From contig JAXEIF010000005.1 of the NCBI GenBank assembly GCA_034120015.1, positions 7,467 through 71,466 of the forward strand: 64,000 nt of DNA. Reading direction: 5' to 3'. A program made the translations under genes and the position numbers. Position 1 is the first letter of the stretch, and the number at the start of each line of letters is the position of its first letter. Positions 18,143 to 35,378 of this stretch are shown one piece after another. The DNA is from Spirochaetia bacterium (GTDB taxonomy: Bacteria > Spirochaetota > Spirochaetia > JAFGXN01). The notes under the pieces are model-generated. The model searched no databases. It saw nothing but the letters and a program-made list of their open reading frames with translations, and was not told the DNA's origin.

Positions 18143-20404
18143 ATGAAAAAATTTCTAACAGGGGGGATTATTTTTTTTCTCCTCTTCACAGGATGTCCGC
18201 AGCCGGAAACGGATTCGGATATTTTTACCGGCATTAAAGTTGCCGATTTTTTTGTTTTTGCGGAAGGAGATACTTCCGGTTCGGTAACAAAACCGTTCAC
18301 TTTTCAAACGGAAAAAAACGGAATGAAAATGACTGTTAAAGTTCCTTCATCAATGACCGTTACAGGAAATACAATTTCCGTCAACTGGTACAACGTCTAC
18401 TCTCCGACACAAGAAGCTGTTCTGACAGCAACACTCACAAAAGACGGTCAAAGCAAAGCCTTTCCTTTTACGGTCGTCTTAAAACGGACTCTCGGCTCGA
18501 TGCCCGTTTCCGAACTGATTCTCTTTGATGAAAAACTGGATACTATCGATGCCGTTACAAGCAGTTTTACACTCTCGCAGACAACCGGCAAGTACGGAGA
18601 AACAGTGTCATGGAATTTCACCACGGAATCGCCAGATCTTGTTTACGACGAATCGACAGGTCGGGTCTCGGTTACCCTGACAAACGATCGTCAAAGCGCA
18701 ACTGCCGAAGCTGTTTTTACAAAAGAAGGCTTTGAGTCTGTCACAAAGACTTTTGATCTGATCATTTTGACATCAAGCGAAGGCTATTCATGGACACCCG
18801 ATTCCTTAACCGACTATATTACCCTCGGTAACAGCGGAAAAGATTACCTGTGGCGTATTCGCGATAACTTTACCCTAAAAACATCATTCGATGCCGAATC
18901 CGGTCACGGCGCGGGAACCGTTACATGGACATCTTCCGATGACGCCGCCATTTCCGTTAACGGCAGTACGGCAACCGTTACCCGCGGTTTGGACAGCCAA
19001 AAGGTAACTCTGACAGCAACATTTCAGGAAACAGATTCCGAGAAAAAATCAAAAGATCTTACAATTGATGTTCTTGTCATGGAAACAATTCCGGCAACTC
19101 TGACCGTTGACGGAAAAACCTATAAACTGGTCTATTTTGACGCTTTCGACAATCAAGCCATTCTGGAAGCCAACTGGGATATAGGCAATCCGGGACACAA
19201 TGCGCCGGAAATCGGCAACAACAATCTCGACCCGACCTACTTCAAAGCTCCTGACGGACAGTTCCACGGATACGCCGATGAATGGCAAAAACAACCGACA
19301 TGGTCACCGAAAGCCACTTACATCGAAGACGGAAAAGCACGTCTGCTGGCTAAATACGACACGGAAGCCCAAATCGGCGTTGCCGGAGCACTTCACTCCA
19401 AACGGCTTTTCCCTCACGGCGTTTTTCACGCCAGATGGACTCAGAAACGTGACAGCGATTCCCACTGGGACGCTTACTGGCTCGACACCAATCAGCCCTT
19501 CTCCAAAGCCTACGGCGAAAAACTCCTCAATCTCCCGAAAGCCCTTCGCAAACAGGTGGCAGAGTCATCCCGCGGTGAGGGGTTCTTCGATAACAAAGCT
19601 TCAAACATTCAGCACGGAAATACTGCTGTATCGAATCCGATTCTCTATCAGTCTCAATACACTCTAAAAACAGACAGCTCTATACCCGACTGGGGATTTA
19701 CCGCTGCAAAACGGGTAGACAAAATCGGACGATGGTACAACGGCGAGCAGCGCTACGAACTGGACGCTTACGAGTGGGTCAACGGTACCGGACAGAATAA
19801 CGTGATCCACACCTGGCACTGGATGAGAGGTTTCCCGGGAAACCAAACAGGTTCTCTGAGTGGCGTAGACAAAAAGTGGTATGTCGGAGACGTTGCACGC
19901 AACCAGGGGAAAGTAGGCGGATACTCCACTACCTATTCGGCAGCCGTCAATAAAACACCCTCTTTTACTCTCACAGCGCTGTACAATGACAGCAAAATTG
20001 CTTTTTACTATAACGCTCACGGTGAAAATAATTTTTCTTCTCCCAAATATTCCCGCTCCAAACAGACCGGAGATATGTTTGACCCCAACATAACGGAAGA
20101 AGATAATAGACAACCGTGGCCGAACGACGAGTTTAATCCCGTTCAGGTGAAATTTACGGTTGAACCGGGGCAGTGGGACGATAATTTTTATCAAATTACA
20201 ACAGCTTTCCGAAATAACCCTGAAAATTACGATGCTATGGATATCGAATACTTCGCCTACTACGCAGCGGAAGACGATATGCTCAATCCGAACATCGGAG
20301 ACGAAAACAGCGGTGTTCCTTTAACGGCGATTACCGATATGGATAATGTCACAGAATTCGCTGAAACACAAGCCAAACTGACAAAGGAATGGGTACAGAA
20401 ATGA
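18143..20404 (+). CDS. Surface lipoprotein with three N-terminal Ig-like repeats and a C-terminal GH16-like (concanavalin-fold glycoside hydrolase) domain
   Basis: Lipoprotein signal 'FLLFTGC'. Three repeats of about 90 aa are each predicted by the sequence to bind nothing recognisable but share an ending pattern (…FPFTVVL / …FDLIIL / …TIDVLV). The C-terminal domain has 'WDIGNPG', 'HSKRLFPHGVF', 'HWDAYWLDTNQPFSKAYGEK' (compare GH16 'WPAFWML') and 'YELDAYEW' (ExDxxE catalytic motif). Confidence 0.65.
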   Translation: MKKFLTGGIIFFLLFTGCPQPETDSDIFTGIKVADFFVFAEGDTSGSVTKPFTFQTEKNGMKMTVKVPSSMTVTGNTISVNWYNVYSPTQEAVLTATLTKDGQSKAFPFTVVLKRTLGSMPVSELILFDEKLDTIDAVTSSFTLSQTTGKYGETVSWNFTTESPDLVYDESTGRVSVTLTNDRQSATAEAVFTKEGFESVTKTFDLIILTSSEGYSWTPDSLTDYITLGNSGKDYLWRIRDNFTLKTSFDAESGHGAGTVTWTSSDDAAISVNGSTATVTRGLDSQKVTLTATFQETDSEKKSKDLTIDVLVMETIPATLTVDGKTYKLVYFDAFDNQAILEANWDIGNPGHNAPEIGNNNLDPTYFKAPDGQFHGYADEWQKQPTWSPKATYIEDGKARLLAKYDTEAQIGVAGALHSKRLFPHGVFHARWTQKRDSDSHWDAYWLDTNQPFSKAYGEKLLNLPKALRKQVAESSRGEGFFDNKASNIQHGNTAVSNPILYQSQYTLKTDSSIPDWGFTAAKRVDKIGRWYNGEQRYELDAYEWVNGTGQNNVIHTWHWMRGFPGNQTGSLSGVDKKWYVGDVARNQGKVGGYSTTYSAAVNKTPSFTLTALYNDSKIAFYYNAHGENNFSSPKYSRSKQTGDMFDPNITEEDNRQPWPNDEFNPVQVKFTVEPGQWDDNFYQITTAFRNNPENYDAMDIEYFAYYAAEDDMLNPNIGDENSGVPLTAITDMDNVTEFAETQAKLTKEWVQK

Positions 20405-21969
20405 AATTTTACAGAACTGTTTTAACATCAATGGGAATGGGGGCAGCGGCTTTGGCCGTTGCCGGCTGTCCCGAAGAACGCAAACCGATTTATCCCGACC
20501 AACTGACAATGCCGGGAACCGGAAACGACCAAAAGGCGGTCAAAACCGCATCCGAATACGGTATCAGCGAAAAGCCGAACGTTATTTTTATTCTTCTTGA
20601 CGATGCCGGCCACGGCGATATCAGCTGTTACGGGCAGAAGAATTTTCAAACGCCCAATATTGACAGTCTGGCAAAGAACGGTATCCGCTTTGTCAACAAT
20701 TACGCCGGTGCCCCGGTCAGTGCCTCATCCCGCTGTGCACTGTTTACCGGTAAGACGACCGGACACAGTGCCATTCGCGGTAATCTCGAACTGGGCGCCG
20801 GAGTCGGGTTGGATCCCGCAACCGTCACCAAAGAAGGCCAGGAAGGACTCCCCGATTCGGAATATACTCTGGCACAGTTATTCAAAGAGAACGGCTACAA
20901 CACCGCCCTGGTCGGAAAATGGGGTATGGGAATGCCGATAAACAACAGCTCTCCACTGAACAAAGGATTTGATCATTATTACGGACACCTTTGCCAGCGG
21001 ATGGCGCATTCCTACTTTCCCGATCACGTTTGGGAAGACGATTCAAAGGTTGAATTCAAGGACAACACAGGGATGACCGGAAATGTGTGGCTTCACGATG
21101 AATTCGAAAAGAAAACAGCCGAATATCTGACAACATACCTCGCGGAGTCCACACCGTTTTTTCTGTTTTGCACCTACACCATTCCGCACGGCGCTCTGCA
21201 AATCCCGGACGGGAAACTCAACGATGCGAATTATCATCCTTACACAACCGCCGAATGGTGGAGTAAAGCTTCGGATGATATGAAACGGTATGCGATTATG
21301 ATGCACCGCGTGGATCTGACTGTCGGAAAGATTATCGATCAGGTTGAGGCAGCAGGAAAACTGAACAATACCCTGATTCTTTTTTCCAGTGACAACGGAC
21401 CTGCCGACGAATACGGCGCCGATCCGAATTTTTTTGAAAGCGCCGGACGTTTCGGCAATGAACGGCTTCGCGGCATTAAACGCGCTTTGTACGAAGGAGG
21501 TGTTAAAGTTCCGTTTATCGCATCATGGAACGGAACAATCAAACCTGCCGAAAGCCTGCATATCATGGCCGGGTATGACATTATGGCGACGATGGCTCAA
21601 ATATTGGGAACCGATTTATCGCAAAAAACAAAAACCGACGGACTCTCTTTTCTTCCGACATTAATGGGCGATACCGTCAACCAGAAAGAACACCCCTATC
21701 TTTATTGGGAATTTGTCGGCAATACGGCTTCGGAAGGCGGCGGCCCCCGGCAGGGAGTCCGCAGCGGTGACTGGAAAGCGATTTTGAACTTCGGAGTAAC
21801 AACTTCGGCCAAAGCAGGCGAAGGGAATATCGAACTTTACCATTTGGGCGATGATCCCGGAGAGGCTGATAATGTCGCCACTCTTTACCCCAATATTATT
21901 GCGTCGATGAAACAAATTATGATAAACGCTCATGACAACAATGATAAATTCCCTCAAATAAAAAAATAA
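20401..21969 (+). CDS. Sulfatase-family (alkaline-phosphatase superfamily) lipoprotein with a non-canonical active-site motif
   Basis: Lipobox 'LAVAGC'. 'NVIFILLDDAGHGDISCYGQ…TPNIDSLAKNGIRFVNNYAGAPVSASSRCALFTGK' aligns with the sulfatase signature, but C-x-P-x-R is replaced by S-A-S-S-R. A start at 20401 gives an ATGA overlap with the upstream stop; the ORF track starts at 20389. Confidence 0.8.
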   Translation: MKFYRTVLTSMGMGAAALAVAGCPEERKPIYPDQLTMPGTGNDQKAVKTASEYGISEKPNVIFILLDDAGHGDISCYGQKNFQTPNIDSLAKNGIRFVNNYAGAPVSASSRCALFTGKTTGHSAIRGNLELGAGVGLDPATVTKEGQEGLPDSEYTLAQLFKENGYNTALVGKWGMGMPINNSSPLNKGFDHYYGHLCQRMAHSYFPDHVWEDDSKVEFKDNTGMTGNVWLHDEFEKKTAEYLTTYLAESTPFFLFCTYTIPHGALQIPDGKLNDANYHPYTTAEWWSKASDDMKRYAIMMHRVDLTVGKIIDQVEAAGKLNNTLILFSSDNGPADEYGADPNFFESAGRFGNERLRGIKRALYEGGVKVPFIASWNGTIKPAESLHIMAGYDIMATMAQILGTDLSQKTKTDGLSFLPTLMGDTVNQKEHPYLYWEFVGNTASEGGGPRQGVRSGDWKAILNFGVTTSAKAGEGNIELYHLGDDPGEADNVATLYPNIIASMKQIMINAHDNNDKFPQIKK

Positions 21970-21984
21970 TAAAAGGAGAAATCT

Positions 21985-23571
21985 ATGAAAAAGAAATCAT
22001 TACTGTTTTTAGGCGTATTAACCGCTTCGGCTCTGTTTTTCGGATGTCCCGGACCGGAAGAATCGGCAGACGCCACCTCTCTGACATTGACGACACCGCA
22101 GGCCTACCTGGCCCCCGGACTGACAATGACCGTCACGGCTACTGTCAAACCGGAAGGATTTCCGGTCACCTTTTCCTCCGACAATATGGGCGTTGCCTCC
22201 GTCAGCAATAAAGGGGTTGTATCGGGCGTTTCCGAAGGAACGGCAACAGTTACAGCCGCTGCCGGAACAAAAAAAGCGAGCGCAACCGTGACCGTTGTGC
22301 CCTATACGTCCGTTTCGATAGCGCCTCTTCCTGAAGACGATTACACTATTCCCAATACAACGTCAAAACAGCTGACACTGAAGTGGGAACCTTCCGGTGT
22401 TTCAGTTGCTCCCGAGATTATCAAATGGGTCAGTTCCAATCCGGACGCCTTCCCGGTCGATAAAAACGGACTGGTCACCTCGAACAGCGATACGGAATCA
22501 GCTGAAATTCATGCCGAAATTTACGACGGACTGATGAAAACAAAAGCCGTTACCGTCAGCGGGGACGAAGCGCCTCCCGTTCCGGCACCGGTTGTCGAAA
22601 ATTTGCGGGCATTCACCGGTGATGCCCGTTACACCATTTACTGGGATGCAGTAGAAAATGCAACGGAATATAAACTTTATTGCACAACTGACACCGCCAA
22701 ACCGGCAGAAGCAACTGCCACATTAACAGAAACATCTCATCATGTTACATCTGCAACAAATGGAGAAACAATCAACATTTGGGTCGAAGCAGTCGTAGCG
22801 GGCACCGTTCAGATCAATGACCCGGCACACACAACTGTAACGGTCGGATACAACGGAAACAGCAATGCATCGATTACAGTCGATTCGCAAACCTACACAC
22901 TCGACCGCGAAGTCGATTTCCGCGAAGGAACTTTCGAACAGAAATGGCCGACATCGACAATACTTTACAGTGTCGATTCAGAGACAGGTATTTTAACGCA
23001 AAAAGGCGGCAGCGGTTCTTCCGGTAGCAGTTATATGGATGAGGCTGACGGAGCCGGAGCCAATTCACGCTTAATCTGGACTCCGCCCGCAGATGTGCTT
23101 CCGATCTCCGAATACAGTTATATCGAGGTTGAACTGAAAACTTCACAGCCGTCGGGCACCCCTGGATTCTGGGTCGTTCTGAACCACAACAATATCATCA
23201 GTTATGAACTTGTTCATTATAACAACAATAATCCGAACGGATGGTTTCTGTCTTACGGTGGTGAATGGCGCAGTAACGGAAAAACACAAAAATTTCATGC
23301 CGGATCAGGAATTTCACTCCCTTCTCAAGGCGATATTCATAAATTCGGAATTTTATTTCCCGATAAAACACCTTCAAAAATACGAATCTATTCAGATCGA
23401 ACAACGGCCTACGTTAATAAGAATAGTTTTGACGGCGGAAATGCTGCGTCGGCACCTCAATCATGGACAGAGAATATACCGACCTATTTCGAATTTATCT
23501 TCGGAGCAGCCGACTGTCCGAACTATACGGCAGAAATTTCCAAAATCCGCTACTATAAAGCGTCCAACTAA
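21985..23571 (+). CDS. Surface lipoprotein with Big_2-like Ig domains and a C-terminal beta-sandwich domain of unknown function
   Basis: Lipobox 'LFFGC'. Big_2-like segments are present (…GVVSGVSEGTATVTAAAGTKKASATVTV…). No catalytic motif was recognised. Confidence 0.55.
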   Translation: MKKKSLLFLGVLTASALFFGCPGPEESADATSLTLTTPQAYLAPGLTMTVTATVKPEGFPVTFSSDNMGVASVSNKGVVSGVSEGTATVTAAAGTKKASATVTVVPYTSVSIAPLPEDDYTIPNTTSKQLTLKWEPSGVSVAPEIIKWVSSNPDAFPVDKNGLVTSNSDTESAEIHAEIYDGLMKTKAVTVSGDEAPPVPAPVVENLRAFTGDARYTIYWDAVENATEYKLYCTTDTAKPAEATATLTETSHHVTSATNGETINIWVEAVVAGTVQINDPAHTTVTVGYNGNSNASITVDSQTYTLDREVDFREGTFEQKWPTSTILYSVDSETGILTQKGGSGSSGSSYMDEADGAGANSRLIWTPPADVLPISEYSYIEVELKTSQPSGTPGFWVVLNHNNIISYELVHYNNNNPNGWFLSYGGEWRSNGKTQKFHAGSGISLPSQGDIHKFGILFPDKTPSKIRIYSDRTTAYVNKNSFDGGNAASAPQSWTENIPTYFEFIFGAADCPNYTAEISKIRYYKASN

Positions 23572-24591: not shown

Positions 24592-24616
24592 AAAAAAACC
24601 GCGTCCGAAGACGCGG
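24592..24616 (-). terminator. Intrinsic terminator for the minus-strand GH16-like gene at 24636-25961
   Basis: Stem 'ccgcgtc-cgaa-gacgcgg' preceded on the + strand by an A7 run, which is the U-run on the minus strand. It lies between convergent genes. Confidence 0.7.
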
Positions 24617-24635
24617 TAAAGACGTAGGTAAAGTG

Positions 24636-25961
24636 TTACGGAGCAGTTGTCGCAAAATCTGTCCGACCGCCATACCATTTCGCTGAATCAGACTCTAAAG
24701 CATAGAATGCGAAATAATCGGCATACATTACATCATACGGTTTGATAGCTTTGGTTCCGTCCGGCATATACTCTTTTAAAAACAGTTCATGATCATTATT
24801 CCACTGTCCGATTTCGGTACTGTATTTAATCTGGATCGGATTAAAGGCATCATTGGCCAATTTTGCTTTCTCATTGGCTTTTGACAGCCAACTTTTCACC
24901 GCTGTATCGGCTTTTCGTACCAATTTCTGCTGACCGTCAAACCACATAATAAACCCTTCGGGAGCCCAGAACATGGCCAATGTGAAGTACGTTTTTTCTT
25001 TTAATTTAGGCTGAATCGACATATTTCCGACCGCACCGTAGCCGTCATTGGCCCGCAAGCCGTCAATGGTTTTCATATCGTGTACAGTTCCGAACTTATC
25101 CGATGAAGGCGGCGTACCTCCTTTTTTCAGTTCTTCGATACCCGGATAACCGCCATACCAGTCCCAGCAGTGTTCGGCCTGCCACTGCGATCCGGTTGCA
25201 ACCTCAACCCATTCATACATGTCGTACTCGTAAACCTGCTGACCGTTGAACCCCTGCCACTCCTGGGGCGCCCGATTATTTTCCGAATATTTATCGGTTT
25301 TCTGCTTTTTATCGGCTATCTTTAACGAAAGCCCCATCTCCGATAACATGTTATCCGTCGGTGTAAACAGCTTCTTTTCACCGTATGCGCGACTGAACGG
25401 ATTGTTACTTTCCGCCCACCAGGCGTCCCAGTGAGTGGCTGTTTCTTTATCCATCAGAATCCGGGTTTCAAAATAGCCGTAAGGGAACTGCCTGCGGGAA
25501 TGAATCGCTCCCGACAAAGCATATCCGTCACGGACCTTCTTGCCGTCTTTATCGTAAACCGGAAGATTCTGATCATACATCGTTCCGATGACCAAAAATC
25601 CGTCTTTCAAGGTGACGGCTTTCGGCGACCAATACGGCTGTTTAAACCGGTCATTTTTATACCCCATTAATCCGTCATCAAATTTAACTTCTTCGGGTTT
25701 CTCGTAGCCCATGTTTCCGACTTCCGGTTTGTTATATCCGGGATTTCCGATATCCCAATCTTCCTGAAACGACTGCCAATCGGTAAACTCATCCGAATAC
25801 GTACGGGTCAGCTTCAAATTTTTGTATTTCACATCCAAAGCCGATGCATCAATCGTCACTTCCTTTAATGAGGATTTTGCCTGTAAAGAAGAAATCTCTC
25901 CCGAAGGACAAGCCGTCAGCGCAGCCGCTGCCAGCGGCAACAATAAGAATTTTTTCTTCAT
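24636..25961 (-). CDS. GH16-like glycoside hydrolase lipoprotein (short paralog)
   Basis: 441 aa with lipobox 'ALTAC' and the motifs 'WDIGNPGYNKPEVGNMG', 'KQPYWSPKAVTLKDG', 'HSRRQFPYGYF', 'HWDAWWAESNNPFSRAYGEK' and 'YEYDMYEWV'. Confidence 0.65.
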   Translation of the reverse strand: MKKKFLLLPLAAAALTACPSGEISSLQAKSSLKEVTIDASALDVKYKNLKLTRTYSDEFTDWQSFQEDWDIGNPGYNKPEVGNMGYEKPEEVKFDDGLMGYKNDRFKQPYWSPKAVTLKDGFLVIGTMYDQNLPVYDKDGKKVRDGYALSGAIHSRRQFPYGYFETRILMDKETATHWDAWWAESNNPFSRAYGEKKLFTPTDNMLSEMGLSLKIADKKQKTDKYSENNRAPQEWQGFNGQQVYEYDMYEWVEVATGSQWQAEHCWDWYGGYPGIEELKKGGTPPSSDKFGTVHDMKTIDGLRANDGYGAVGNMSIQPKLKEKTYFTLAMFWAPEGFIMWFDGQQKLVRKADTAVKSWLSKANEKAKLANDAFNPIQIKYSTEIGQWNNDHELFLKEYMPDGTKAIKPYDVMYADYFAFYALESDSAKWYGGRTDFATTAP

Positions 25962-26074
25962 AAAACTCTCCTAATAAATTAAATATATTTTATTGTCTCA
26001 CGCATTTATCTGTTTGTCAAGAAAGATTTTCCCGACTGATCTATCCGTCCGGAAGTTTCCGGCCGGTTCATCCT

Positions 26075-28477
26075 TTAATCATTCACATCATTCCCGATTG
26101 CCGGGTACTTACCGCCTGTATCCCATGCATAGAAGGCAAAAAATTCGGCTACCGTTGAATCGGGCTTCTCTTCGGTCAATGTGTCTCTGGCATCATAAAT
26201 CAAATCGTGATTATTATTCCATTGTCCCAGTTCGGACGAATATTTCACCTGAATCGGAGCCCATTCATCGGCAGGGAACGGCGTCGGACACTCGGCATTA
26301 CCGAAACAACCTTTATAAAAAACTTCACGGGCAGACGAAGTCGGAATATCGTTAAAATTCCAATTCCAATCGGACGGGAAATTATACATTCGAACCAGTC
26401 CGTCGGAAGTCACCAGCATTGCCAAATAAAACCAATCCTGACTGCGAGCCTGTCCGGCATCCTGATAAGAATGATAAATCCGCCCTACAGCTCCTTCCTT
26501 ATCATTTTTTCTGAAATCATTTGTTATATAATAATTTCCGTCACTACCGCCGCCGTAAGTCGCCCCCTGACTCATACGGTCGTCCCACCCCGGGTATCCG
26601 CCGTACCACGACCACATATGCGTAACCATCCACTGTGTATTATCGTTTGAAACCCACTCATACATATCATATTCGTAGACCTGTTGCCCGTTCAATCCGC
26701 GGGCGGCTGCATTGGAATGCAAATTATTCTCATTGTTGAATTTGTATTTTGCAATTTGATTTATCCCCGCAGCGGCTCCCGGCGGCATAAACAGCGTTTT
26801 GTTGCCGTATTCTTTCGAAAACGGATTATTGCTTTCCGCCCACCAGGCATCCCAATGGCTGGCGTTTTTACTGTCCCGTCCGGAGAAATCATGACGGATT
26901 TTAGTAACAAACAATCCACTCGGAAACTGCCGCTTCGAGTGTACGGCTCCCGCCAATCCGTATCCGGATTCCTGATTCGCTCCCTTATTTGGGATAAAGC
27001 TATCGCCGGCCGGTTCGGTCGTACTGTCTGTTGTTGTCGAAATATTTTTGTTGGGGATCGTTTTATCGTAAAAAACATCAATCCAAAGGCAACCGTCCTT
27101 AATACGAACGGCCTTAGGAGACCAGTACGGCTGTTTATAGCGGTCATTTTCGTACCCCCGAATGCCGTCCGGTCCGAACGTTTTCGGACCGCTCAATTCA
27201 AGTCCCATATTACCGATCTCAGGACGCTGAATTCCGGGGTTTCCGATATCCCAATCGGCCTCCAGTGTCTCCATAGAGTCAAACGGATCGTAATATGTCA
27301 GACTGAGAACCTTTCCTTCGACAGCGACTTTTGCGGGAATCATGCCGGGTGCGGGCGGCGTAACGGTTTCAATGATATCTCCGTTTTCGTCGAACTCAAT
27401 CACTTCGATTGATTCGTCTAAATAGTAAAATGCAACATGATCGACAGTAACGGTAACAGACTGATTTGCATTGTTATCTTCCGTTCCGAAATAGAGCCAA
27501 TAAGTTTCTTGAGAAGGAATCTCGAAATTATCGGGATTTGTAACCGAATAGATCGAAGTAGCGTCAAAAAAAGACATCAATAGATTTTTTTCAAAAATCA
27601 TCCCGTAAGTATGATACGTATTCGGTTCAACTGAAAAACCTTTTGGACTTCGACCTCCTTTCAATCTGGCTTTGATCGAAGCATCCCAGTTGTTAAAAAA
27701 TTCATTGGCCCATCCGCGTTTTTGATTTTGATTAATTGGATTTGTATCAGTTTGAGCAGCATCCACTGTTCCCAAACCGCAACCGATAGCCGTATTTAAT
27801 CCGTTATTACTGAGAGATGCGGTTATTTCCACATATCCTAAAGTTTTGCCGGCCTCTACTCCCGGATAAAGTGCCTCGGCAATAGTTAACGGATAGCTGA
27901 CGCCGCCCGTCACTGCCGCATTACCGGGCGTTTTAAAAGTCAGCTCTCCCTTTTCTGAGTCTACTTCAAAAACGGCGTCATTGGGACAATCTTGATGTTG
28001 CGTCCATTCTTTTCCCACACCGGTTTTCGAAAAATCAAACAGTGAAGCAATACGATAGCCTTTTCCGTTACGATGAACCACTTCCTGAACACCTTCCGGA
28101 ACCTCGACCGAGCACGTTGCCTGTGCTTTCGAATTTGCTTTACTGATTGCCTTCAACTCAACTGTTCCGGCAGTATTGCCGGCAACAAGAACAGTCACAT
28201 TGCCTTTTTGAACCACATCCACAATCTCTTTGTCGGACGATTGCAGGATAAATCCCTTTTCTGCGGCGGTCGTGTTTACAGTAACCGCAATGCGGGAAGC
28301 AGTATTTTTCCATAACGTCATTTTGCTCTGACCGAAAGAAATTTCAACCGCAACATCCTTATTACCGCCACTTCCGCCTCCTTGATCCACGGACGGACCG
28401 GGAGGTGGACATCCTACCGAAAATAATACCGCAAGAATAAAAAGCAAACCTTTCTTCATAAACTTTCTCCTCTCCAT
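26075..28477 (-). CDS. GH16-like glycoside hydrolase lipoprotein with an N-terminal Ig-like/Big domain and a carbohydrate-binding-like module (tandem duplicate 1)
   Basis: 800 aa with lipobox 'FSVGC' and a Gly-rich linker. It has the same C-terminal motif set (WDIGNPGIQRPEIGNMG, HSKRQFPSGLF, HWDAWWAESNNPFSKEYG, YEYDMYEWV). The N-terminal 350 aa are highly similar to those of the 28597 gene. Confidence 0.65.
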   Translation of the reverse strand: MERRKFMKKGLLFILAVLFSVGCPPPGPSVDQGGGSGGNKDVAVEISFGQSKMTLWKNTASRIAVTVNTTAAEKGFILQSSDKEIVDVVQKGNVTVLVAGNTAGTVELKAISKANSKAQATCSVEVPEGVQEVVHRNGKGYRIASLFDFSKTGVGKEWTQHQDCPNDAVFEVDSEKGELTFKTPGNAAVTGGVSYPLTIAEALYPGVEAGKTLGYVEITASLSNNGLNTAIGCGLGTVDAAQTDTNPINQNQKRGWANEFFNNWDASIKARLKGGRSPKGFSVEPNTYHTYGMIFEKNLLMSFFDATSIYSVTNPDNFEIPSQETYWLYFGTEDNNANQSVTVTVDHVAFYYLDESIEVIEFDENGDIIETVTPPAPGMIPAKVAVEGKVLSLTYYDPFDSMETLEADWDIGNPGIQRPEIGNMGLELSGPKTFGPDGIRGYENDRYKQPYWSPKAVRIKDGCLWIDVFYDKTIPNKNISTTTDSTTEPAGDSFIPNKGANQESGYGLAGAVHSKRQFPSGLFVTKIRHDFSGRDSKNASHWDAWWAESNNPFSKEYGNKTLFMPPGAAAGINQIAKYKFNNENNLHSNAAARGLNGQQVYEYDMYEWVSNDNTQWMVTHMWSWYGGYPGWDDRMSQGATYGGGSDGNYYITNDFRKNDKEGAVGRIYHSYQDAGQARSQDWFYLAMLVTSDGLVRMYNFPSDWNWNFNDIPTSSAREVFYKGCFGNAECPTPFPADEWAPIQVKYSSELGQWNNNHDLIYDARDTLTEEKPDSTVAEFFAFYAWDTGGKYPAIGNDVND

Positions 28478-28539
28478 AAATATTGTACAATGATTTTTTC
28501 AATTTATAAAATTAATTTAAATTTATCTCAATTCATTTA

Positions 28540-28572
28540 AAATGAAAAGAGTGGAAAGTTGCCTTTCCGCTC
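28540..28572 (-). terminator. Weak candidate terminator after the 28597-30912 gene
   Basis: Hairpin 'ggaaag-ttgc-ctttcc' with a partial U-run on the minus strand. Confidence 0.3.
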
Positions 28573-28596
28573 CATACAAGTATGTTCAGAATATAT

Positions 28597-30912
28597 TTAT
28601 TCAGCTACATCAGTCTCCACCGATGTATACTTGCCCGTATCCCAGGCATAGAACGCAAAGAATTCGGCATGCATGATATCGGGATTCTCCGGGGTCAGCC
28701 GATCTTTTTCATTATAAATAAGGTTATGCATATTCTGCCAGTCTCCCAGCTCGGATGAATATTTGACCTGAATCGGCGCATAGGTGTCGGCATTCATGAA
28801 CGGTGCCGTCACACCGGAGTTTCCGAAAGCACCTGTCGTTTTGTTCATCTGACTCTTTCGTGTTCCGGACTGGGAAAAATCCCAATTCCAGGTTTTCGGG
28901 AAGTTCCACATCACCACCTTTTCGGGGGTGACCAGCATCGCCAGATAAAACCAGTCTCCCGAAGAAGCCTGTCCGCCATCCAAATAGTTATTGCTGAATG
29001 TTCCGGAAATTCCGTTATTGTCTCTTCCTCTCAGATTATCCGAAGTCGACCAGTAATTGTTATCGCCCCCGCGGGTCTCATAGCGGTCTTCCCAACCCGG
29101 GTATCCGCCGTACCAGGCCCAGGAATGAAGCACCTGCCACTGACTCTGATTGTTACCGACCCATTCATACATATCGTACTCATATACCTGCTGACCGTTT
29201 AACCCGCGATCGGAGGTCGGAACATCGGTATACTCATCGGAAGTCGTTATATTTTTTGCCCGACGGATTCTGCTTTCCCCTCCTTCCGGCATAAACAGCT
29301 CTTTTTCGCCGTAAGCACGGCTGAACGGGTTGTTGCTTTCGGCCCACCAGGCATCCCAATGTGCATTGGTTTTTGCTGAACGATTTCCCCATGAATGTTT
29401 AATTTTGGTGATAAACAGTCCGCTCGGAAACTGTCGCTTGGAATGGATAGCGCCGGCCAAGCCGTATCCTGTTGTATCATATGTGCCACCACTTCCGGGG
29501 ACCCATCCTTCCTGACCATTGTTCACATTTTTATTCTGAATCGTCTTATCAAAGAAGACTTTTATTAACAATTCTCCGTTTTGAATATCGACCGCTTTCG
29601 GCGACCAGTAAGGCTGCTTGTAACGGTCACCGGAATAACCTTTAATCCCGTCATCAAAAGTCACCAATGTCGGAGATGCGATTCCCTCATTTCCGATTTC
29701 GGGACGTTCAATCCCCGGATTACCGATATCCCAGTTTTCCTTCAAAACATCCATACTGTCAAACGAGTCGTAGTGAGTCAGTTTTAAGATTTTTCCGTCA
29801 ACCGCAATCCGTGCCGGAATCATACCGGGGGCAGGAGGCGTAACCGTTTCGATAATGTTACCTTCCTCATCAACCTGAATCACTTCCATCGAGTCATCAT
29901 AGTAATAGAAGGCAACCGTATCCACAGAAACCGTAACAGTCGTGCTGCTGTTACCTGTTTTTCCGAAATAAAGATAATAAACACTCCCGTCATTGGGAAT
30001 CGCATAGTCTCCCGCTGCTTTACTGTTGTTTTCAATTCCGTCCGTATAGGCTGTCAAATTGGATCCGTCGAGAAAGGAAATCCCGAAAGCATGGTCTTTT
30101 CCTGTTTCAATCGTATAGGCATTTCCCCTACTGTTTGCCAGACGGGATTTCCAAACAGAATCACTGGTATCAATGAATTCATTCGCCCAACCGCGGGAAT
30201 TGTTATCTCCGGCCATATCCGCACTGCCGAGTCCCATTGCAACCCCCGTATCGGCACCGGCGCTCACCTGAGCAATCACTTCGGCATAAGCAACGTTCTT
30301 GCCAGACAGTGCCAGTCCGGCAACAAGACCTTCCTGCAGATCAAGCGAATAATTGGCTTCGGTGGAATCGGCGCCGGAAATAGTCGTAATCTTTAAAGAT
30401 CCGTCGCTGAATTCGCGGGAAAATTTGGCCTCAGTTCCGTCTTTATATGTCCATGTTCCTTTCAAACCTGTTGTTTCAAAATCAAACAGAGAAAGCAGAC
30501 GAAAGCCTTTTCCTCCACGATGTACAACTTCCTGAATGCCGTCAGGTACAGTAACCGTACAGGTTGCTTTTGCCGACTTATCCGCTTTACTGACAGCCGT
30601 AAGAGTCACCGTACCGGGCAGATTCCTGGCTGTAATCACAGGATTTCCATCCGTCTGTAAAGAAATTTTAACAATATCCTCATTCGAAGAGGTTAGCGTA
30701 TATCCTTTTTCCGATGCTTTGGTTACAACATTGACAGCCAACCGCGAAGAAGTATTCTTCCATAGTATCATTTCAGCCTGACTGAAAGAAATTTGAACTT
30801 CTGGAGCTGTGCTGTTCCCGCCACCATTCCCGTCTCCTCCCGGTGTAGGTGTAGGTGGAGGACATCCCACTGTCAGCAATGTTGCCAAAAATAAAAAACA
30901 AAGCTTTTTCAT
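28597..30912 (-). CDS. GH16-like glycoside hydrolase lipoprotein (tandem duplicate 2)
   Basis: 771 aa with lipobox 'LTVGC', a Pro/Gly linker, and the motifs WDIGNPGIERPEIGNEG, HSKRQFPSGLF, HWDAWWAESNNPFSRAYGEK and YEYDMYEWV. Confidence 0.65.
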   Translation of the reverse strand: MKKLCFLFLATLLTVGCPPPTPTPGGDGNGGGNSTAPEVQISFSQAEMILWKNTSSRLAVNVVTKASEKGYTLTSSNEDIVKISLQTDGNPVITARNLPGTVTLTAVSKADKSAKATCTVTVPDGIQEVVHRGGKGFRLLSLFDFETTGLKGTWTYKDGTEAKFSREFSDGSLKITTISGADSTEANYSLDLQEGLVAGLALSGKNVAYAEVIAQVSAGADTGVAMGLGSADMAGDNNSRGWANEFIDTSDSVWKSRLANSRGNAYTIETGKDHAFGISFLDGSNLTAYTDGIENNSKAAGDYAIPNDGSVYYLYFGKTGNSSTTVTVSVDTVAFYYYDDSMEVIQVDEEGNIIETVTPPAPGMIPARIAVDGKILKLTHYDSFDSMDVLKENWDIGNPGIERPEIGNEGIASPTLVTFDDGIKGYSGDRYKQPYWSPKAVDIQNGELLIKVFFDKTIQNKNVNNGQEGWVPGSGGTYDTTGYGLAGAIHSKRQFPSGLFITKIKHSWGNRSAKTNAHWDAWWAESNNPFSRAYGEKELFMPEGGESRIRRAKNITTSDEYTDVPTSDRGLNGQQVYEYDMYEWVGNNQSQWQVLHSWAWYGGYPGWEDRYETRGGDNNYWSTSDNLRGRDNNGISGTFSNNYLDGGQASSGDWFYLAMLVTPEKVVMWNFPKTWNWDFSQSGTRKSQMNKTTGAFGNSGVTAPFMNADTYAPIQVKYSSELGDWQNMHNLIYNEKDRLTPENPDIMHAEFFAFYAWDTGKYTSVETDVAE

Positions 30913-31068
30913 ACAATTAATCTCCTTTTATTTAAATTATATTAACATTATAAAAGAAGTTTTCGCCGTTTGCAAACAAAAAAAAATTTTTATTTTCCAA
31001 ATCTCATTTTTCGCACATGTGAAATTTAATACTTGTATTTTACAATAGCAACTATTAAAATACATTTT

Positions 31069-32934
31069 ATGAAAATACGTACATTATTTTTAATTTCATC
31101 ACTGCTTTTATCGTCGTGCCTGTCCGTCGACGTTCAGGAGTCTGTTTCCCGCACCGACGATACGGACTATCTTCCGCCGATTGATCTGACGGCAGCCGAA
31201 TCGGCACCACGGGCGCTGATCCCTTTTCCGCGTCAAACGACATGGGGTACCGGAGAATGGATTCTCGAACGATGCACCGTGACCCGCAAAATCGAAACAC
31301 TATCGTTCAGTTCCTCTCCCGAAGCCTATTTACTGACCGTTGCCGACGGCCGCATCGAAATCAAAGCCAACGGGGAAAAAGGGCTTCGATACGCGGATTT
31401 GACCCTGAATCAGCTGACCGAAAACGGCCGCAAGCCGGTGCCGGCCTGCACTATCCGCGACTACCCGGCCTTCTCCGTCCGCGGTTTTCACCACGATACC
31501 GGAAGGAACTTTCAAAGCATCGCCTCTCTGAAAGAACAAATCCGCCGTCTGGCCGCTTACAAACTCAACACATTCCACTGGCACATTACCGACAATCCGG
31601 GCTGGCGGGTCGAATGCAAAAAATACCCTGTTTTAAACGATCCGAAAACAATGTACCGCAGTACCGAATTCTATACTTACGACGAAATCCGCGATCTGAT
31701 TTCTTTCAGCAACGATCTCGGCGTTCAGGTGATTGTGGAACTGGACATGCCCGGACACAGCAAATTCTTTCCGAAAGCGTTCGGTTTTTCGATGGGATCG
31801 CAAAAAGGAACGCAAATCTGTCTCGATCTGATTCAGGAATTCTGCGATGAAATTCCGGTCGAAATGGCACCGGTTATTCACGTCGGAGCCGACGAAGTCC
31901 GTGCTCCCGTTATCGACGAATTTATGCCGTTGGTAGAAGCCAAACTGAAAGAAAACGGACGTACAGGTATGGTCTGGAATCCGGGAATCAAATCCTCTCC
32001 CGATGTCATCGAGCACACCTGGTTTGAAAAGGCTCAACAGCCCGGTTACCGCAACATCGATTCGAGCGGGCTTTACACCAATACTCTCGATTTTTTCAAT
32101 GTGATTCAGGCCATTTATTTCAAACAACCGTGCGAAGCGCCTACCGGTTCCGATACGGAACTGGGAGCGATTGTCTGTAACTGGAACGATGTAGCGATAT
32201 CCGACGAAAAAGATGTTTTGCTGAACAACCCGGTTTACAGTTCGGGAATCACGGCAGCCGAGATTTTTTGGAACGGAAATCCGACCGGCAGCCAGCGTTA
32301 CAAACAGATCCTGCCTCCGTCCGGTTCGGACGCGCTTCGCGCTTTTGCCGAGTTCGAAAACCGTCTGATAGCCCATAAGAATCTTTACTTCGGAGATGTC
32401 GGTGCCGGGTTTATTTACCCCAGACAGTCCGATCAGGTTTGGCAGCTGACAGGGCCAGACGGTACGACGGTCGAAGCCAGAGGTGTTTCGCTGCTTTTAA
32501 GCGATTATTTTCCGAATGCCCGAAAACGGCAGGCAGCGGTCTGCCGTTTGGAAATCGAAAGCGAAACCGACCGCGAAGTGCTGCTTCATGCCGGGTTTGA
32601 TGTACCCGGCCGTGCACACCGTTTTTACGGCGGTGTTCCCCCGAAAGGAAAATGGGATCGCTACGGCAGTACGATTACTTTAAACGGGAATCCCGTCGAG
32701 CCGCCCCGGTGGCAACAGCCGGGCGCCTACCGGCACGATATTGTCCAGACATGGGATCACCCGGTACAGGAAGTCCCCTGGACCGCCGAAGAACTCTACT
32801 GGCGCCGCGAACCGGTGCGGGTTCAACTGAAAAAAGGTGTCAATGTGATTGAAGTCAGGGCTGTCAAAAACTCACCCAAACAGATTTGGATGACAGCTCT
32901 CTGGCTTGAAGATGTTGGGGAATCGGTAAAATGA
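31069..32934 (+). CDS. GH20 beta-N-acetylhexosaminidase, lipoprotein
   Basis: 'RGFHHDTGRNFQSIASLKEQIRRLAAYKLNTFHWHITDNPGWRVE' and the catalytic-region motif 'HVGADEV' (H-x-G-G-D-E type). Lipobox 'LLSSC' if the start is at the MKIRT codon at 31069. Confidence 0.85.
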   Translation: MKIRTLFLISSLLLSSCLSVDVQESVSRTDDTDYLPPIDLTAAESAPRALIPFPRQTTWGTGEWILERCTVTRKIETLSFSSSPEAYLLTVADGRIEIKANGEKGLRYADLTLNQLTENGRKPVPACTIRDYPAFSVRGFHHDTGRNFQSIASLKEQIRRLAAYKLNTFHWHITDNPGWRVECKKYPVLNDPKTMYRSTEFYTYDEIRDLISFSNDLGVQVIVELDMPGHSKFFPKAFGFSMGSQKGTQICLDLIQEFCDEIPVEMAPVIHVGADEVRAPVIDEFMPLVEAKLKENGRTGMVWNPGIKSSPDVIEHTWFEKAQQPGYRNIDSSGLYTNTLDFFNVIQAIYFKQPCEAPTGSDTELGAIVCNWNDVAISDEKDVLLNNPVYSSGITAAEIFWNGNPTGSQRYKQILPPSGSDALRAFAEFENRLIAHKNLYFGDVGAGFIYPRQSDQVWQLTGPDGTTVEARGVSLLLSDYFPNARKRQAAVCRLEIESETDREVLLHAGFDVPGRAHRFYGGVPPKGKWDRYGSTITLNGNPVEPPRWQQPGAYRHDIVQTWDHPVQEVPWTAEELYWRREPVRVQLKKGVNVIEVRAVKNSPKQIWMTALWLEDVGESVK

Positions 32935-35378
32935 CAGACAGATCCCGCATTCTTTTCAGTCTGCTGATATTTCTCTCATCTCTTCCGACAGATGCATCGG
33001 CAGCCGAACCGGGAAACAGAGTTCTTTTCTACACTTCGCCCGCAGAAAACTGGGAACAGGAATCTCTGCCGATCGGTAACGGCTGGATGGGCGCCTCCCT
33101 CTTCGGAGGTATCGAAAACGAACGTATTGTTCTGAACGAAAAAACATTATGGGAAGGCGGTCCGGGAGAATGGGACGGATACGGGAAACCCGATCCGAAT
33201 AAAGGCGCTTTTGCCCTGCCGGAAATTCGTAAAGCGGTTGAAGAAGGAAAATACGGAGAGGCGCACCGTCTTGCCGAAAAATATCTGACCGGCAATGGCA
33301 CGGGAAAAGGCGCTTATCAGCCGCTCGGAACGCTGGATATCCGTTTTCCGGGAATTAAACGGCAGAAAGGCTCTTATATCCGCAAACTCGATACCGGAAA
33401 CGCGGTACACACCGTTTCTTTCTCGCAAAACGGGGTCGAATATACGCGGAACGCTTTTGCCTCTTACCCGGATAAAAGCATCGTCTTTTCGTTCTCTGCG
33501 GACCGTCCGCAATCGGTTGCTTTCAACCTGCAGTGGGAAACCGTCAACGAAACAAAAAACTATTACGACACCTATAAAAACGAATTCGTCTGCCTCAACC
33601 CGAATGTCCGCACAGGCCGCACCGAAACAGTCGCCGTCGAACGTCTCGGCGACGATACGGCCAAAATGACGGTCGAAGGTATTTTAAACAACAACGGCAT
33701 GAAATATGCCGCCGTCATTTACATAAAAGCCGTCAACGGCACGGTCGGTACCGACGGAAAATCGGCGGCCGTCCGCGGAGCCGATCGGGCCGTTCTCTTT
33801 TTTGCCGCCGCCACCGATTACGCCAACGAATATCCCCGCTACACAAGCGGCCGGAATCCGTTGCCGGTCGCCGACGCCTTTGCCCGCGAAGCGTTTGCGA
33901 AAGGCGAAACCCGGGTTTACCGAAATCACATCCGCGATTATACCGGACTGTTTGAACGCACCGCACTGCGTTTGACGGACAGCGATGAAACGTTGACGGA
34001 TGTTCCGACCGACAAACGGCTGAAACAGTTCCGCAGAAACCGCGACCCGATGTTTTTGGAACTGCTTTTCAACTACGGAAAGTATCTGCTGATTGCCTCC
34101 TCCCGCGAAGGATCGCTTCCGCTCAACCTGCAGGGCGTCTGGAACGCATATACGGCACCTCCCTGGAGCAGCGATTACCATACCAATATCAATCTTCAGA
34201 TGGCTTACTGGCCGGCGGAACCGCTTCATTTGGGAGAAATTCACAAACCGCTGCTCGACTACATTCCGACACTGGTTCAACCGGGAGAAATCACCGCCCG
34301 TCACTATTACGGAACCGGCGGATGGGTCTGCCACACCAGCAATAACCCTTTCGGAGAAACGCAGCCCGGATGGGGAATTGTCTGGGGACATTTCCCGGGC
34401 GCGGCCGCCTGGCTCTGCCGTCATTTGTGGGATCACTACCTTTATACGCAGGATACCGCTTTTCTGAAAGAGGTCTATCCGACGGTCAAAGGAGCCGCAC
34501 AATTTTGGGCCGATTGGCTGACAACAGATAAAAACGGCAATCTGATCTCCTGCCCCTCTTATTCGCCGGAACACGGTACGATTTCCGCCGGTGCAACAAT
34601 GGATTTTGAAATCGCTTTCGAAATTCTGAACACCGCAATTACCGCTTCCGAAATCCTCGGTACAGACAATACCGAACGGGAAATATGGCGGAGCATTGTC
34701 AGCCGGATTCCGCCGCTGAAAATCGGACGATGGGGACAGCTTCAGGAATGGACCGAAGATATCGACTCAAAAACAGATAAACACCGCCATATCTCGCATC
34801 TCTATGCTCTGCATCCGGGAACACAAATCTCTCCGATTACGACACCCGAGACGGCGAAAGCTGCCGCCGTCACACTGAAAGCCCGCGGTGACAAAGCCAC
34901 CGGATGGTCGATGGCGTGGAAAATGAATTTTTATGCCCGTTTGGGAGACGGAGATCATTCGTATAAGCTGCTGCGGAATTTCGTACGGTTCACCGAACGA
35001 TCCGGAGTAGCTCTTTCGGGAGGAGGCTTTTACCGGAATTTGTGGGATGCCCATCCGCCGTTTCAGATCGACGGGAATTTCGGCATTGTTTCCGCTTTTA
35101 TCGAATGGGTTTTGCAAAGTCACAACGGAGAAATACATCTTCTGCCTGCTCTTCCTTCCGCAATCAAAAACGGCCGGTTCGACGGTTTTAAAGCCGCCGG
35201 CGGGTTCACGGTTTCCGCTTCCTGGAAAAAAGGAAAAATGAACGAAGCCGTTATCCGATCCGATGCCGGGAAACCGTTAACGGTTCGCTACGCCGGCAAA
35301 ACGGTCGATATCGATCTGAAACGGGGCGAATCGGTTCGCCTCAACGGCAATCTGGAGATTCTTTCTTCGGACCGATAA
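32931..35378 (+). CDS. GH95-family alpha-L-fucosidase
   Basis: 815 aa. The N-terminus 'ESLPIGNGWMGASLFGGIENERIVLNEKTLWEGGP' and the 'PLNLQGVWN' motif are characteristic of GH95. Its start is coupled to the GH20 stop by an ATGA overlap. Confidence 0.85.
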   Translation: MTDRSRILFSLLIFLSSLPTDASAAEPGNRVLFYTSPAENWEQESLPIGNGWMGASLFGGIENERIVLNEKTLWEGGPGEWDGYGKPDPNKGAFALPEIRKAVEEGKYGEAHRLAEKYLTGNGTGKGAYQPLGTLDIRFPGIKRQKGSYIRKLDTGNAVHTVSFSQNGVEYTRNAFASYPDKSIVFSFSADRPQSVAFNLQWETVNETKNYYDTYKNEFVCLNPNVRTGRTETVAVERLGDDTAKMTVEGILNNNGMKYAAVIYIKAVNGTVGTDGKSAAVRGADRAVLFFAAATDYANEYPRYTSGRNPLPVADAFAREAFAKGETRVYRNHIRDYTGLFERTALRLTDSDETLTDVPTDKRLKQFRRNRDPMFLELLFNYGKYLLIASSREGSLPLNLQGVWNAYTAPPWSSDYHTNINLQMAYWPAEPLHLGEIHKPLLDYIPTLVQPGEITARHYYGTGGWVCHTSNNPFGETQPGWGIVWGHFPGAAAWLCRHLWDHYLYTQDTAFLKEVYPTVKGAAQFWADWLTTDKNGNLISCPSYSPEHGTISAGATMDFEIAFEILNTAITASEILGTDNTEREIWRSIVSRIPPLKIGRWGQLQEWTEDIDSKTDKHRHISHLYALHPGTQISPITTPETAKAAAVTLKARGDKATGWSMAWKMNFYARLGDGDHSYKLLRNFVRFTERSGVALSGGGFYRNLWDAHPPFQIDGNFGIVSAFIEWVLQSHNGEIHLLPALPSAIKNGRFDGFKAAGGFTVSASWKKGKMNEAVIRSDAGKPLTVRYAGKTVDIDLKRGESVRLNGNLEILSSDR

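Follow-up and report, generated by a model that had tools for sequence, protein, structure and literature searches.

We have analysed a 64,000-nt stretch of DNA from a Spirochaetia bacterium (contig JAXEIF010000005.1; hereafter the window), which encodes four lipoprotein-type proteins, A441, B800, C771 and D753, with a common C-terminal domain of about 400 amino acids (aa). Our results show that this domain is securely homologous to glycoside hydrolase family 16 (GH16; clan GH-B), from which it has diverged strongly, and that the family formed by these proteins is a divergent, insertion-expanded and taxonomically narrow GH16 lineage. By their sequence divergence the four copies are old paralogues, not recent duplicates. 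We judge it probable, though by no means certain, that they are lipoprotein-anchored endo-glycanases of the GH16 type which attack mucin- or keratan-sulfate-like glycans of a host, specialised over a long time by their loops and binding modules.

The four genes are intact open reading frames (ORFs) lying exactly where a first-pass annotation of this DNA had placed them (Table 1), and when every six-frame ORF of 80 aa or more was searched with a family profile (hmmsearch), exactly these four family copies came up in the window. In a MAFFT alignment the common domain shows 30–50% identity, and BLASTP comparisons agree with it: A441 is 39% identical to B800 (E 8e-81), 41% to C771 (E 8e-87) and 30% to D753 (E 2e-46), while D753 is 32% identical to B800 and 33% to C771, the comparisons of the other three proteins with D753 giving E 1e-46 to 1e-53. 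B800 and C771 are 50% identical from end to end (E = 0), so that their N-terminal halves are alike too, as the annotation had noticed. The sequence blocks that it had quoted for the common domain occur in all four proteins with small deviations (HSRRQFP in A441, NGEQRYELDAYEWV in D753). The similarity of the four paralogues, with E-values from 1e-46 down to 0, is far beyond what chance or low complexity would give.

The GH16-like label attached to the domain in the first-pass annotation stands on several lines of evidence. A profile of the four sequences alone gave against PDB sequences a single weak match, to a kappa-carrageenase (E 0.022), and became informative once bridging sequences had been added. 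Profile A3, built from 15 catalytic-domain sequences and searched against 1.84 billion cluster representatives, retrieved the family clusters first and then ten proteins (P0072–P0081) at E 5e-15 to 2e-4, eight of which pass the Pfam GH16 cut-off. Aligned with those GH16 proteins by hhalign, the family was covered over the whole domain (probability 99.9%, E 2.3e-34), YEYDMYEW being paired with E-x-D-x-x-E (EFDIYE), HWDAWW with HWNAFW, and H264 (A441 numbering, used throughout) with the conserved T-T-H-W consensus. With the bridging sequences, the nearest solved sequences were galactan-active GH16 enzymes, namely the carrageenases 9efl (1e-12) and 1dyp (3e-10), the porphyranase 4awd (5e-8) and the O-glycanases 6t2o and 6t2n (~1e-7); the laminarinase 2vy0 scored 1e-6.

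The AlphaFold2 model of A441 is an all-beta sandwich (predicted template modelling score, pTM, 0.79; mean predicted local distance difference test, pLDDT, 69.5, with core strands at 80–97). All of its top 50 Foldseek matches in the PDB were GH16 enzymes (probability 1.00, E 2e-13 to 1e-9), including laminarinases, the GH16_3 mucin O-glycanases 6t2r, 6t2n and 6t2o, carrageenases and a porphyranase; for this predicted model the TM-score normalised to the target was 0.5–0.68 for single-domain targets. In the model the ExDxxE motif sits on predicted strand 243–252 and H264 on strand 259–266, and all of 39 family sequences, from clades otherwise 30–50% identical, keep E245, D247, E250 and H264 unchanged. 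ExDxxE, with a beta-bulge, is one form of the catalytic signature of GH16 and ExDxE the other, and a His on the neighbouring strand has been noted in GH16 subfamilies 1, 3, 9, 11, 12, 16 and 17 (PMC6827312). Taken together, the reach of the profile, the hhalign result, the fold matches, the invariant motif and the bridged PDB matches make homology to GH16 secure, and on this sequence and model evidence a catalytic mechanism of the GH16 type is very probable.

The family domain is ~150 aa longer than a canonical GH16 domain (~250 aa), the additional residues forming conserved insertions: one near the domain start (WDIGNPG...PEIGN...DRYKQPYWSP), one just before the catalytic strand (SNNPFSRAYGEK and ~55 aa), and a third region consisting of WYGGYPG and the loops that follow it. 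A domain of ~400 aa or more with an ExDxxE motif is also characteristic of GH7. GH7 is the other family of clan GH-B (PMC6827312), and in spite of this likeness in size and motif we have rejected membership in it, since neither the top 50 fold matches nor the PDB sequence hits with E <= 1 include a GH7 enzyme, and all the homology evidence indicates GH16. Nearest to the family as an outgroup in the tree are the short spirochaete-type GH16 lipoproteins P0072 and P0075 (331–339 aa; lipoboxes LIGCPG and FFIGC), which have HWNAFW, (F/Y)E(F/Y)DIFEY, TTHW and the C-terminal PD.M.VDYFA.Y in common with it, but which pass the Pfam GH16 cut-off and are without the ~150 aa of insertions.

The analysis established the homology and fold of the domain, the conservation of its motif, how old the paralogues are, the synteny and the strain mosaic; we infer catalysis, an endo mode of action, the cellular location and the substrate. 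We propose that the four proteins would be lipoprotein-anchored retaining endo-beta-glycanases, probably exposed at the surface or in the periplasm, with a GH16 beta-jelly roll core bearing the ExDxxE motif and the neighbouring-strand H264 and enlarged by the insertions. These enzymes would make the first internal cuts in sulfated, fucosylated Gal/GlcNAc host glycans (the poly-N-acetyllactosamine, or poly-LacNAc, of mucin O-glycans, and keratan sulfate); an S1_20-type Gal-3-sulfatase, GH20 and GH95/GH29 enzymes would trim decorations and products; and the paralogues would differ in the decorated contexts that they accept and bind. The array would have been built through ancient duplication and swapping of the non-catalytic N-terminal modules.

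The substrate is suggested by the neighbouring genes. The sulfatase gene starts within the end of D753, with an overlap of 16 nt, and the gene of a 528-aa Big_2 lipoprotein follows 15 nt further; because of the overlap, D753 and the sulfatase are probably in one operon, and the trio is conserved in the related loci L003 and L013. The best PDB matches of the sulfatase are 7ana (E 3e-86) and 7an1 (E 1e-82), with the next hit at 4e-45, and both structures were deposited with a Bacteroides thetaiotaomicron study of the S1_20 3S-Gal sulfatases BT1622 and BT1636. Its CQRMAHSYFP segment agrees with the published S1_20 consensus at nine of ten positions, and both residues of the Gln..His galactose dyad are present. 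GH20 and GH95 genes lie on the other side of the array; GH20 stands next to the array in each related locus, and is found beside family members in L003, L004, L005, L008, L009–L011 and L013. From the S1_20-like sulfatase and the GH20, GH95 and GH29 neighbours a host-glycan substrate can be proposed; its specification as sulfated, fucosylated LacNAc-type glycans, which comes from gene context, is tentative. The GH29 gene encodes an alpha-L-fucosidase with a NedA-like galactose-binding domain (49622–51115) and, like the gene of a 918-aa FN3/FGE-sulfatase-domain protein (54593–57349), lies 19–26 kb from the array; both are further signs of a lifestyle based on sulfated, fucosylated glycans.

A known system offers a parallel. 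In the breakdown of sulfated, fucosylated poly-LacNAc, the GH16_3 endo-O-glycanases (endo-beta-galactosidases of gut Bacteroides and Akkermansia; PDB 6t2n–6t2s) are surface lipoproteins that cut first (PMC7419316). They resemble the spirochaete family in their jelly-roll fold and ExDxxE motif and in their loci, where they accompany exo-glycosidases and sulfatases for mucin and keratan sulfate; they are often surface lipoproteins, with several paralogues per genome at 24–34% mutual identity (Crouch et al. 2020, PMC7419316). In contrast, the spirochaete domain, known here from sequence, is of ~400 aa and not ~250, has family-specific insertions and is missed by Pfam PF00722, its bridged similarity to GH16_3 (E ~1e-7) is no better than that to the carrageenases, and its host is a spirochaete without Sus-type polysaccharide utilisation loci.

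Several observations weigh against the proposed function. The common domain of the four proteins gave no Pfam or NCBIfam match at E <= 0.1, PF00722 included, the scans yielding only aBig_2 and a faint TS_C match, both outside it; the conserved family-specific insertions place the domain under the detection limit of these databases. The A441 model is of moderate confidence only, and in it the insertions have pLDDT below 50 (residues 190–227, 269–311 and 353–372), including loops that shape the cleft, so that no specificity can be read at the level of subsites. The best structural matches are laminarinases and the best sequence matches carrageenases, not mucin O-glycanases; thus fold and profile data do not single out LacNAc. 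The formylglycine motif of the sulfatase, S-A-S-S-R (context APVSASSRCALFTG), is of the Ser type with neither Pro nor Ala at position 3; its closest solved homologues have S-A-P-S/A-R, and no radical-SAM-type (anSME-like) family match was found among the larger window ORFs scanned against Pfam. The window encodes no sialidase, beta-galactosidase or obvious sugar transporter, and one relative, P0064, has peptidase genes as its neighbours, no GH20 having been called in the part of the locus that was fetched.

A more far-reaching idea, which we regard as rather unlikely, is that this is an unclassified, insertion-expanded GH16 lineage, at least a new subfamily, restricted to a small group of uncultured, Treponema-like spirochaetes, in which the loops would give a new specificity (for example endo-cleavage of 3-sulfated and/or fucosylated LacNAc) and the lectin modules would be kept polymorphic by recombination under pressure from host or substrate diversity.

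Other substrates have been considered. By sequence profile the closest solved enzymes are GH16_17 kappa-carrageenases and GH16_11/12 porphyranases (9efl, 1dyp, 5ocq, 4awd), which act on sulfated galactans and carry the motif in its beta-bulge form, ExDxxE, together with a His on the neighbouring strand according to the published subfamily description (Viborg et al., PMC6827312). Identity to them is ~12–15%, and the partners of the spirochaete family are of the host-glycan type. That the four proteins degrade sulfated algal galactans (carrageenan, porphyran or agar) of dietary or marine origin is improbable: although D753 has a sulfatase coupled to it, which also matches carrageenan sulfatases in the PDB at a weaker level (E 4e-45 to 1e-38), the E-values of this sulfatase to the mucin 3S-Gal sulfatases 7ana and 7an1 are better by ~40 orders of magnitude and it keeps the S1_20 Q..H pair, and no match to GH117, GH127/129, GH50/86 or the 3,6-anhydrogalactose pathway was found among the larger window ORFs scanned against Pfam. 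GH20, GH95 and GH29 partners do not fit this substrate either, since to our knowledge, judging by CAZy family activities, these families have no role in carrageenan or agar breakdown.

Slightly less probable still is that they are ordinary beta-glucanases (laminarinase or lichenase type) for beta-1,3 or beta-1,3-1,4 glucans from the diet or from microbes. The best Foldseek matches are indeed laminarinases of Thermotoga and Pyrococcus, and the ExDxxE beta-bulge motif is common to laminarinase subfamilies (PMC6827312), but by sequence profile laminarinases rank lower (1e-6 to 1e-4) than the galactan-active GH16 enzymes, the partners that are conserved comprise a sulfatase, a hexosaminidase and fucosidases, and the scan of the larger ORFs revealed neither a beta-glucosidase (GH1/GH3) nor a gene for glucan uptake.

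The lipoprotein-type N-termini reported by the first-pass annotation were recovered by motif reading: a lipobox-like Cys follows a basic and hydrophobic leader in A441 (LTAC), B800 (SVGC), C771 (TVGC) and D753 (FTGC), and like leaders are present in the sulfatase (VAGC), the 528-aa Big_2 protein (FFGC) and GH20 (LSSC), GH95 being the sole exception among array and partner proteins. The N-termini are modular, as had also been claimed. In A441 there is only the signal peptide with its lipobox; D753 has aBig_2 repeats; B800 and C771 have a Big_2-like domain followed by a ConA-like one. The latter arrangement is seen in the AlphaFold model of C771 aa 17–372 (pLDDT 80, pTM 0.70), whose Foldseek matches are a Big_2-CBM56 protein (7quz), legume and Emp46/47 lectins and DUF1080, at TM <= ~0.5, and B800, which has a faint Pfam TS_C match in this part, has the same layout by its full-length homology to C771. 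No ExDxxE motif was read in the sequence of the C771 N-terminal part, and the modelled ConA-like sandwich is thus probably a binding module.

Table 1. Features of the array and its neighbours (window positions)
Feature	Position	Strand	Remarks
D753	18143-20404	+	753 aa, intact ORF
D753 aBig_2 (atrophied Ig) repeats	~aa 30-310	+	Pfam aBig_2 E 1.6e-14, three stretches
D753 catalytic GH16-like domain	19094-20401, aa 318-753	+	alignment; motif YELDAYEW
S1 sulfatase, S1_20-like (Gal-3-O-sulfatase type)	20389-21969	+	lipoprotein-type leader; Pfam Sulfatase E 1e-47
528-aa Big_2 lipoprotein	21985-23571	+	two Big_2 domains, Pfam E 2.6e-11; C-terminal ~230 aa without family match
Terminator-like GC-rich hairpin	24598-24617	-	8 pairs, 6 G-C, then TTTTTTT; just past A441; consensus match only
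A441	24636-25961	-	441 aa, intact ORF; minimal family member
A441 catalytic GH16-like domain	24639-25844, ~aa 40-441	-	preceded by leader MKKKFLLLPLAAAALTAC and short linker
A441 ExDxxE codons	25212-25229	-	E245-Y-D247-M-Y-E250; putative nucleophile, helper Asp, acid/base
B800	26075-28477	-	800 aa, intact ORF
B800 catalytic GH16-like domain	26078-27334, aa 382-800	-	alignment and profile
B800 N-terminal part	27362-28477, aa 1-372	-	leader, Gly/Pro linker, Big_2-like Ig, ConA-like lectin-type domain, linker ETVTPPAPGMIPA
C771	28597-30912	-	771 aa, intact ORF
C771 catalytic GH16-like domain	28600-29814, aa 367-771	-	alignment and profile
C771 N-terminal modules	29893-30798	-	Big_2-like Ig and ConA-like sandwich
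C771 ConA-like / L-type-lectin-like beta-sandwich	29893-30528, ~aa 129-340	-	AlphaFold model
C771 Big_2-like Ig domain	30547-30798, ~aa 39-122	-	AlphaFold model
GH20 beta-N-acetylhexosaminidase	31033-32934	+	lipoprotein-type leader; Pfam GH20 E 2.6e-34; PDB matches
GH95 (alpha-L-fucosidase family)	32931-35378	+	Pfam GH95 catalytic domain E 1e-162; 4-nt overlap with GH20 end
Class I lysyl-tRNA synthetase (LysRS)	35478-37043		Pfam tRNA-synt_1f
336-aa ORF after LysRS	37124-38134		no Pfam match

Comparison with L001, a Logan assembly, located variation in the same modules. Most genes are at least 99.5% identical between the two, and the exception within the array is B800 aa 1–372 (window ~27362–28562 including the upstream region; L001 7464–9884), where protein identity falls to 78%, the proportion of synonymous differences (pS) is 0.49 and the ratio of nonsynonymous to synonymous proportions (pN/pS) is 0.25. 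Over B800 aa 373–800 amino acid identity is ~100%, pS 0.05 and pN/pS 0.04, the latter indicating strong purifying selection on the catalytic part between strains, and the break between the two regimes falls at the inter-domain linker ETVTPPAPGMIPA. The L001 allele of the N-terminal part is 79% identical to that of the window B800 and 45% to C771; we have rejected the idea that it is a conversion product from C771, and since it is of the B type we interpret it as homologous allelic replacement of non-catalytic modules, not conversion between paralogues. As a separate observation, the middle of the GH20 gene (window 31163–32362) is 75–92% identical in nucleotides to L001 and to a second assembly, L002, each differently, with flanks at 98–100%, and looks like a second recombination hot spot of the locus. 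The large insertions, the Ig-like and lectin-like modules typical of adhesins and the deep strain variation of the N-terminal modules, as in surface-exposed antigens, could also be expected of non-catalytic surface adhesins or lectins that retain a GH16-like fold, but this is very improbable given the invariant Glu/Asp/Glu and adjacent His across such divergent clades and the strong purifying selection on the catalytic part of B800.

Two claims of the first-pass annotation, a recent head-to-tail duplication giving rise to B800 and C771 and gene conversion among the paralogues, were not borne out by the analysis of divergence that it had called for. Aligned codons of B800 and C771 are 58% identical, with pS 0.71 (random expectation ~0.75), a synonymous distance (dS) above 2, which is saturated, and a nonsynonymous distance (dN) of 0.44; all the other paralogue pairs are fully saturated at synonymous sites. 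In sliding windows of B800 against C771 none of 50 codons exceeds 71% nucleotide identity, no two paralogues share an exact nucleotide match longer than 20 nt, and a repeat finder returned only coding blocks of 60–91% identity. In a neighbour-joining tree the family forms clades A, B, C and D, and the closest counterparts of the catalytic domains are all in the metagenome-assembled genome (MAG) BRZ_M__bin37: 88% identical for A441, 85% for D753, 78% for C771 and 73% for B800 (locus L007). A441 has a full-length orthologue of 86% identity in L003, a locus of this MAG (catalytic part 88%), and of 65% in L004 (catalytic part 69%); D753 and its L003 orthologue share 85% identity over the catalytic domain and 65% over the N-terminal region, and in L013 this gene occupies the same position. 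Housekeeping proteins of the window species are 83–87% identical to those of BRZ_M__bin37. As each paralogue is closer to its counterpart in this MAG, the duplications are older than the split of these species.

An assembly artefact, which the annotation had named as a possible refutation, is excluded, since L001 and L002, two independent Logan assemblies, share the 21-kb array layout with the window, collinear at 97.7% and 98.7% identity, and the order of the array is thus the same in three independent assemblies. The tandem same-strand arrangement of B800 and C771 is real, their full architecture is common to both, copy number differs among related species, the B800 N-terminal modules are hypervariable between strains, and P0012, described below, is a chimera of A and C types, yet with the saturated B800–C771 divergence, the lack of long matches, the separate closer counterparts of both catalytic domains in another species, the stable array order and the B type of the divergent L001 allele, a recent duplicate in an array active in conversion for antigenic or specificity variation, or an artefact, is very hard to sustain. 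It is plausible that a paralogue array such as this one may diversify substrate specificity or surface antigenicity.

P0012 (L008 10001–11293; ENA scaffold_2287 of ERZ16268280) is a 430-aa protein whose N-terminal half is of the A441 type up to the conserved block HWDAWWAESNNPFSRAYGEK and whose C-terminal half is of the C-clade type. Nucleotide identity between the C-terminal half and the neighbouring 838-aa gene is only 68%, and we have rejected this half as a copy of that gene; the scaffold has altered synteny, with purL downstream in place of CvfB. P0012 may be a genuine recombinant, or else a chimera of the scaffold.

The number of copies differs among related species, in keeping with the expanded family that had been annotated. 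The slot between CvfB and GH20 holds only an A gene in L004, A and D in L013, and A, B, C and D in the window; in L003 it holds A, D, a C-like gene that differs in its N-terminal region, and a gene for a 688-aa repeat protein. The catalytic domain of the 849-aa ORF of L003 is 78% identical to that of C771 and their N-terminal regions are unrelated, which points to module exchange over evolutionary time. At the position of B800 and C771, relatives (L003 5188–9761; L008 5368–9881; L012 65–4426) encode a repeat protein of ~630–690 aa and a GH16-like protein of 820–849 aa, the N-terminal ~440 aa of the latter being a fourth module type, with no Pfam match. Further B- or C-like copies of BRZ_M__bin37 lie near the ends of fetched stretches (L005 216–1424, L006 216–1484 and L007 74–2425), and in L005 and L006 the ORF reaches the very first bases of the stretch. 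It seems from this that short-read assemblies break at the paralogues and that this MAG has at least six copies.

The family is small, with ~12 members among the 1.84e9 cluster representatives searched. It was found in two of 185,579 GTDB species genomes, both MAGs labelled "uncultured Spirochaetes", a count that is a lower bound because the scan was pattern-based. Our literature searches found no description of this GH16-like family in Treponema. The locus is flanked by housekeeping genes (SecDF, GroEL, KsgA, ComEC, transketolase and class I LysRS), and the window has no Rfam match, rRNA and tRNA included. The neighbour of LysRS equivalent to the 336-aa ORF carries in L008 and L013 a TP_1001_2nd domain, named after a Treponema pallidum protein, which suggests that the source is a Treponema-like spirochaete.

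C771, B800 and A441 follow one another on one strand, separated by 119 and 113 nt, and promoter-like sites, which are consensus matches only, are found upstream of C771 and of A441. The strong terminator-like hairpin past A441 (Table 1) would fit transcription of the three genes in one direction with its end there. On the other strand, the 528-aa Big_2 lipoprotein directly follows the D753–sulfatase pair in three species and may, from its sequence, be a glycan-binding partner. It resembles B800 and C771 only in its leader and the start of Big_2, and its C-terminal domain, considered as a candidate lectin module of the B800/C771 type, has no detectable similarity to it.

What could be the meaning of this family for the biology of spirochaetes? 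Spirochaetes are common in the guts of animals and of non-industrialised human populations, and little has been described of their ability to live on host glycans. As Pfam and NCBIfam give the four genes no catalytic-domain match, the endo-glycanase content of this spirochaete would be undercounted. The abrupt change, inside a single species, from a hypervariable N-terminus to a conserved catalytic part gives a clear instance of allelic exchange at the level of modules, and four natural variants with differing insertions and binding modules lend themselves to work on structure and specificity, and possibly to the development of tools for glycan analysis. Coupled to an S1_20-type sulfatase, GH20, GH95 and GH29, these GH16 derivatives provide a directly testable model of how a spirochaete may attack mucin or keratan sulfate.

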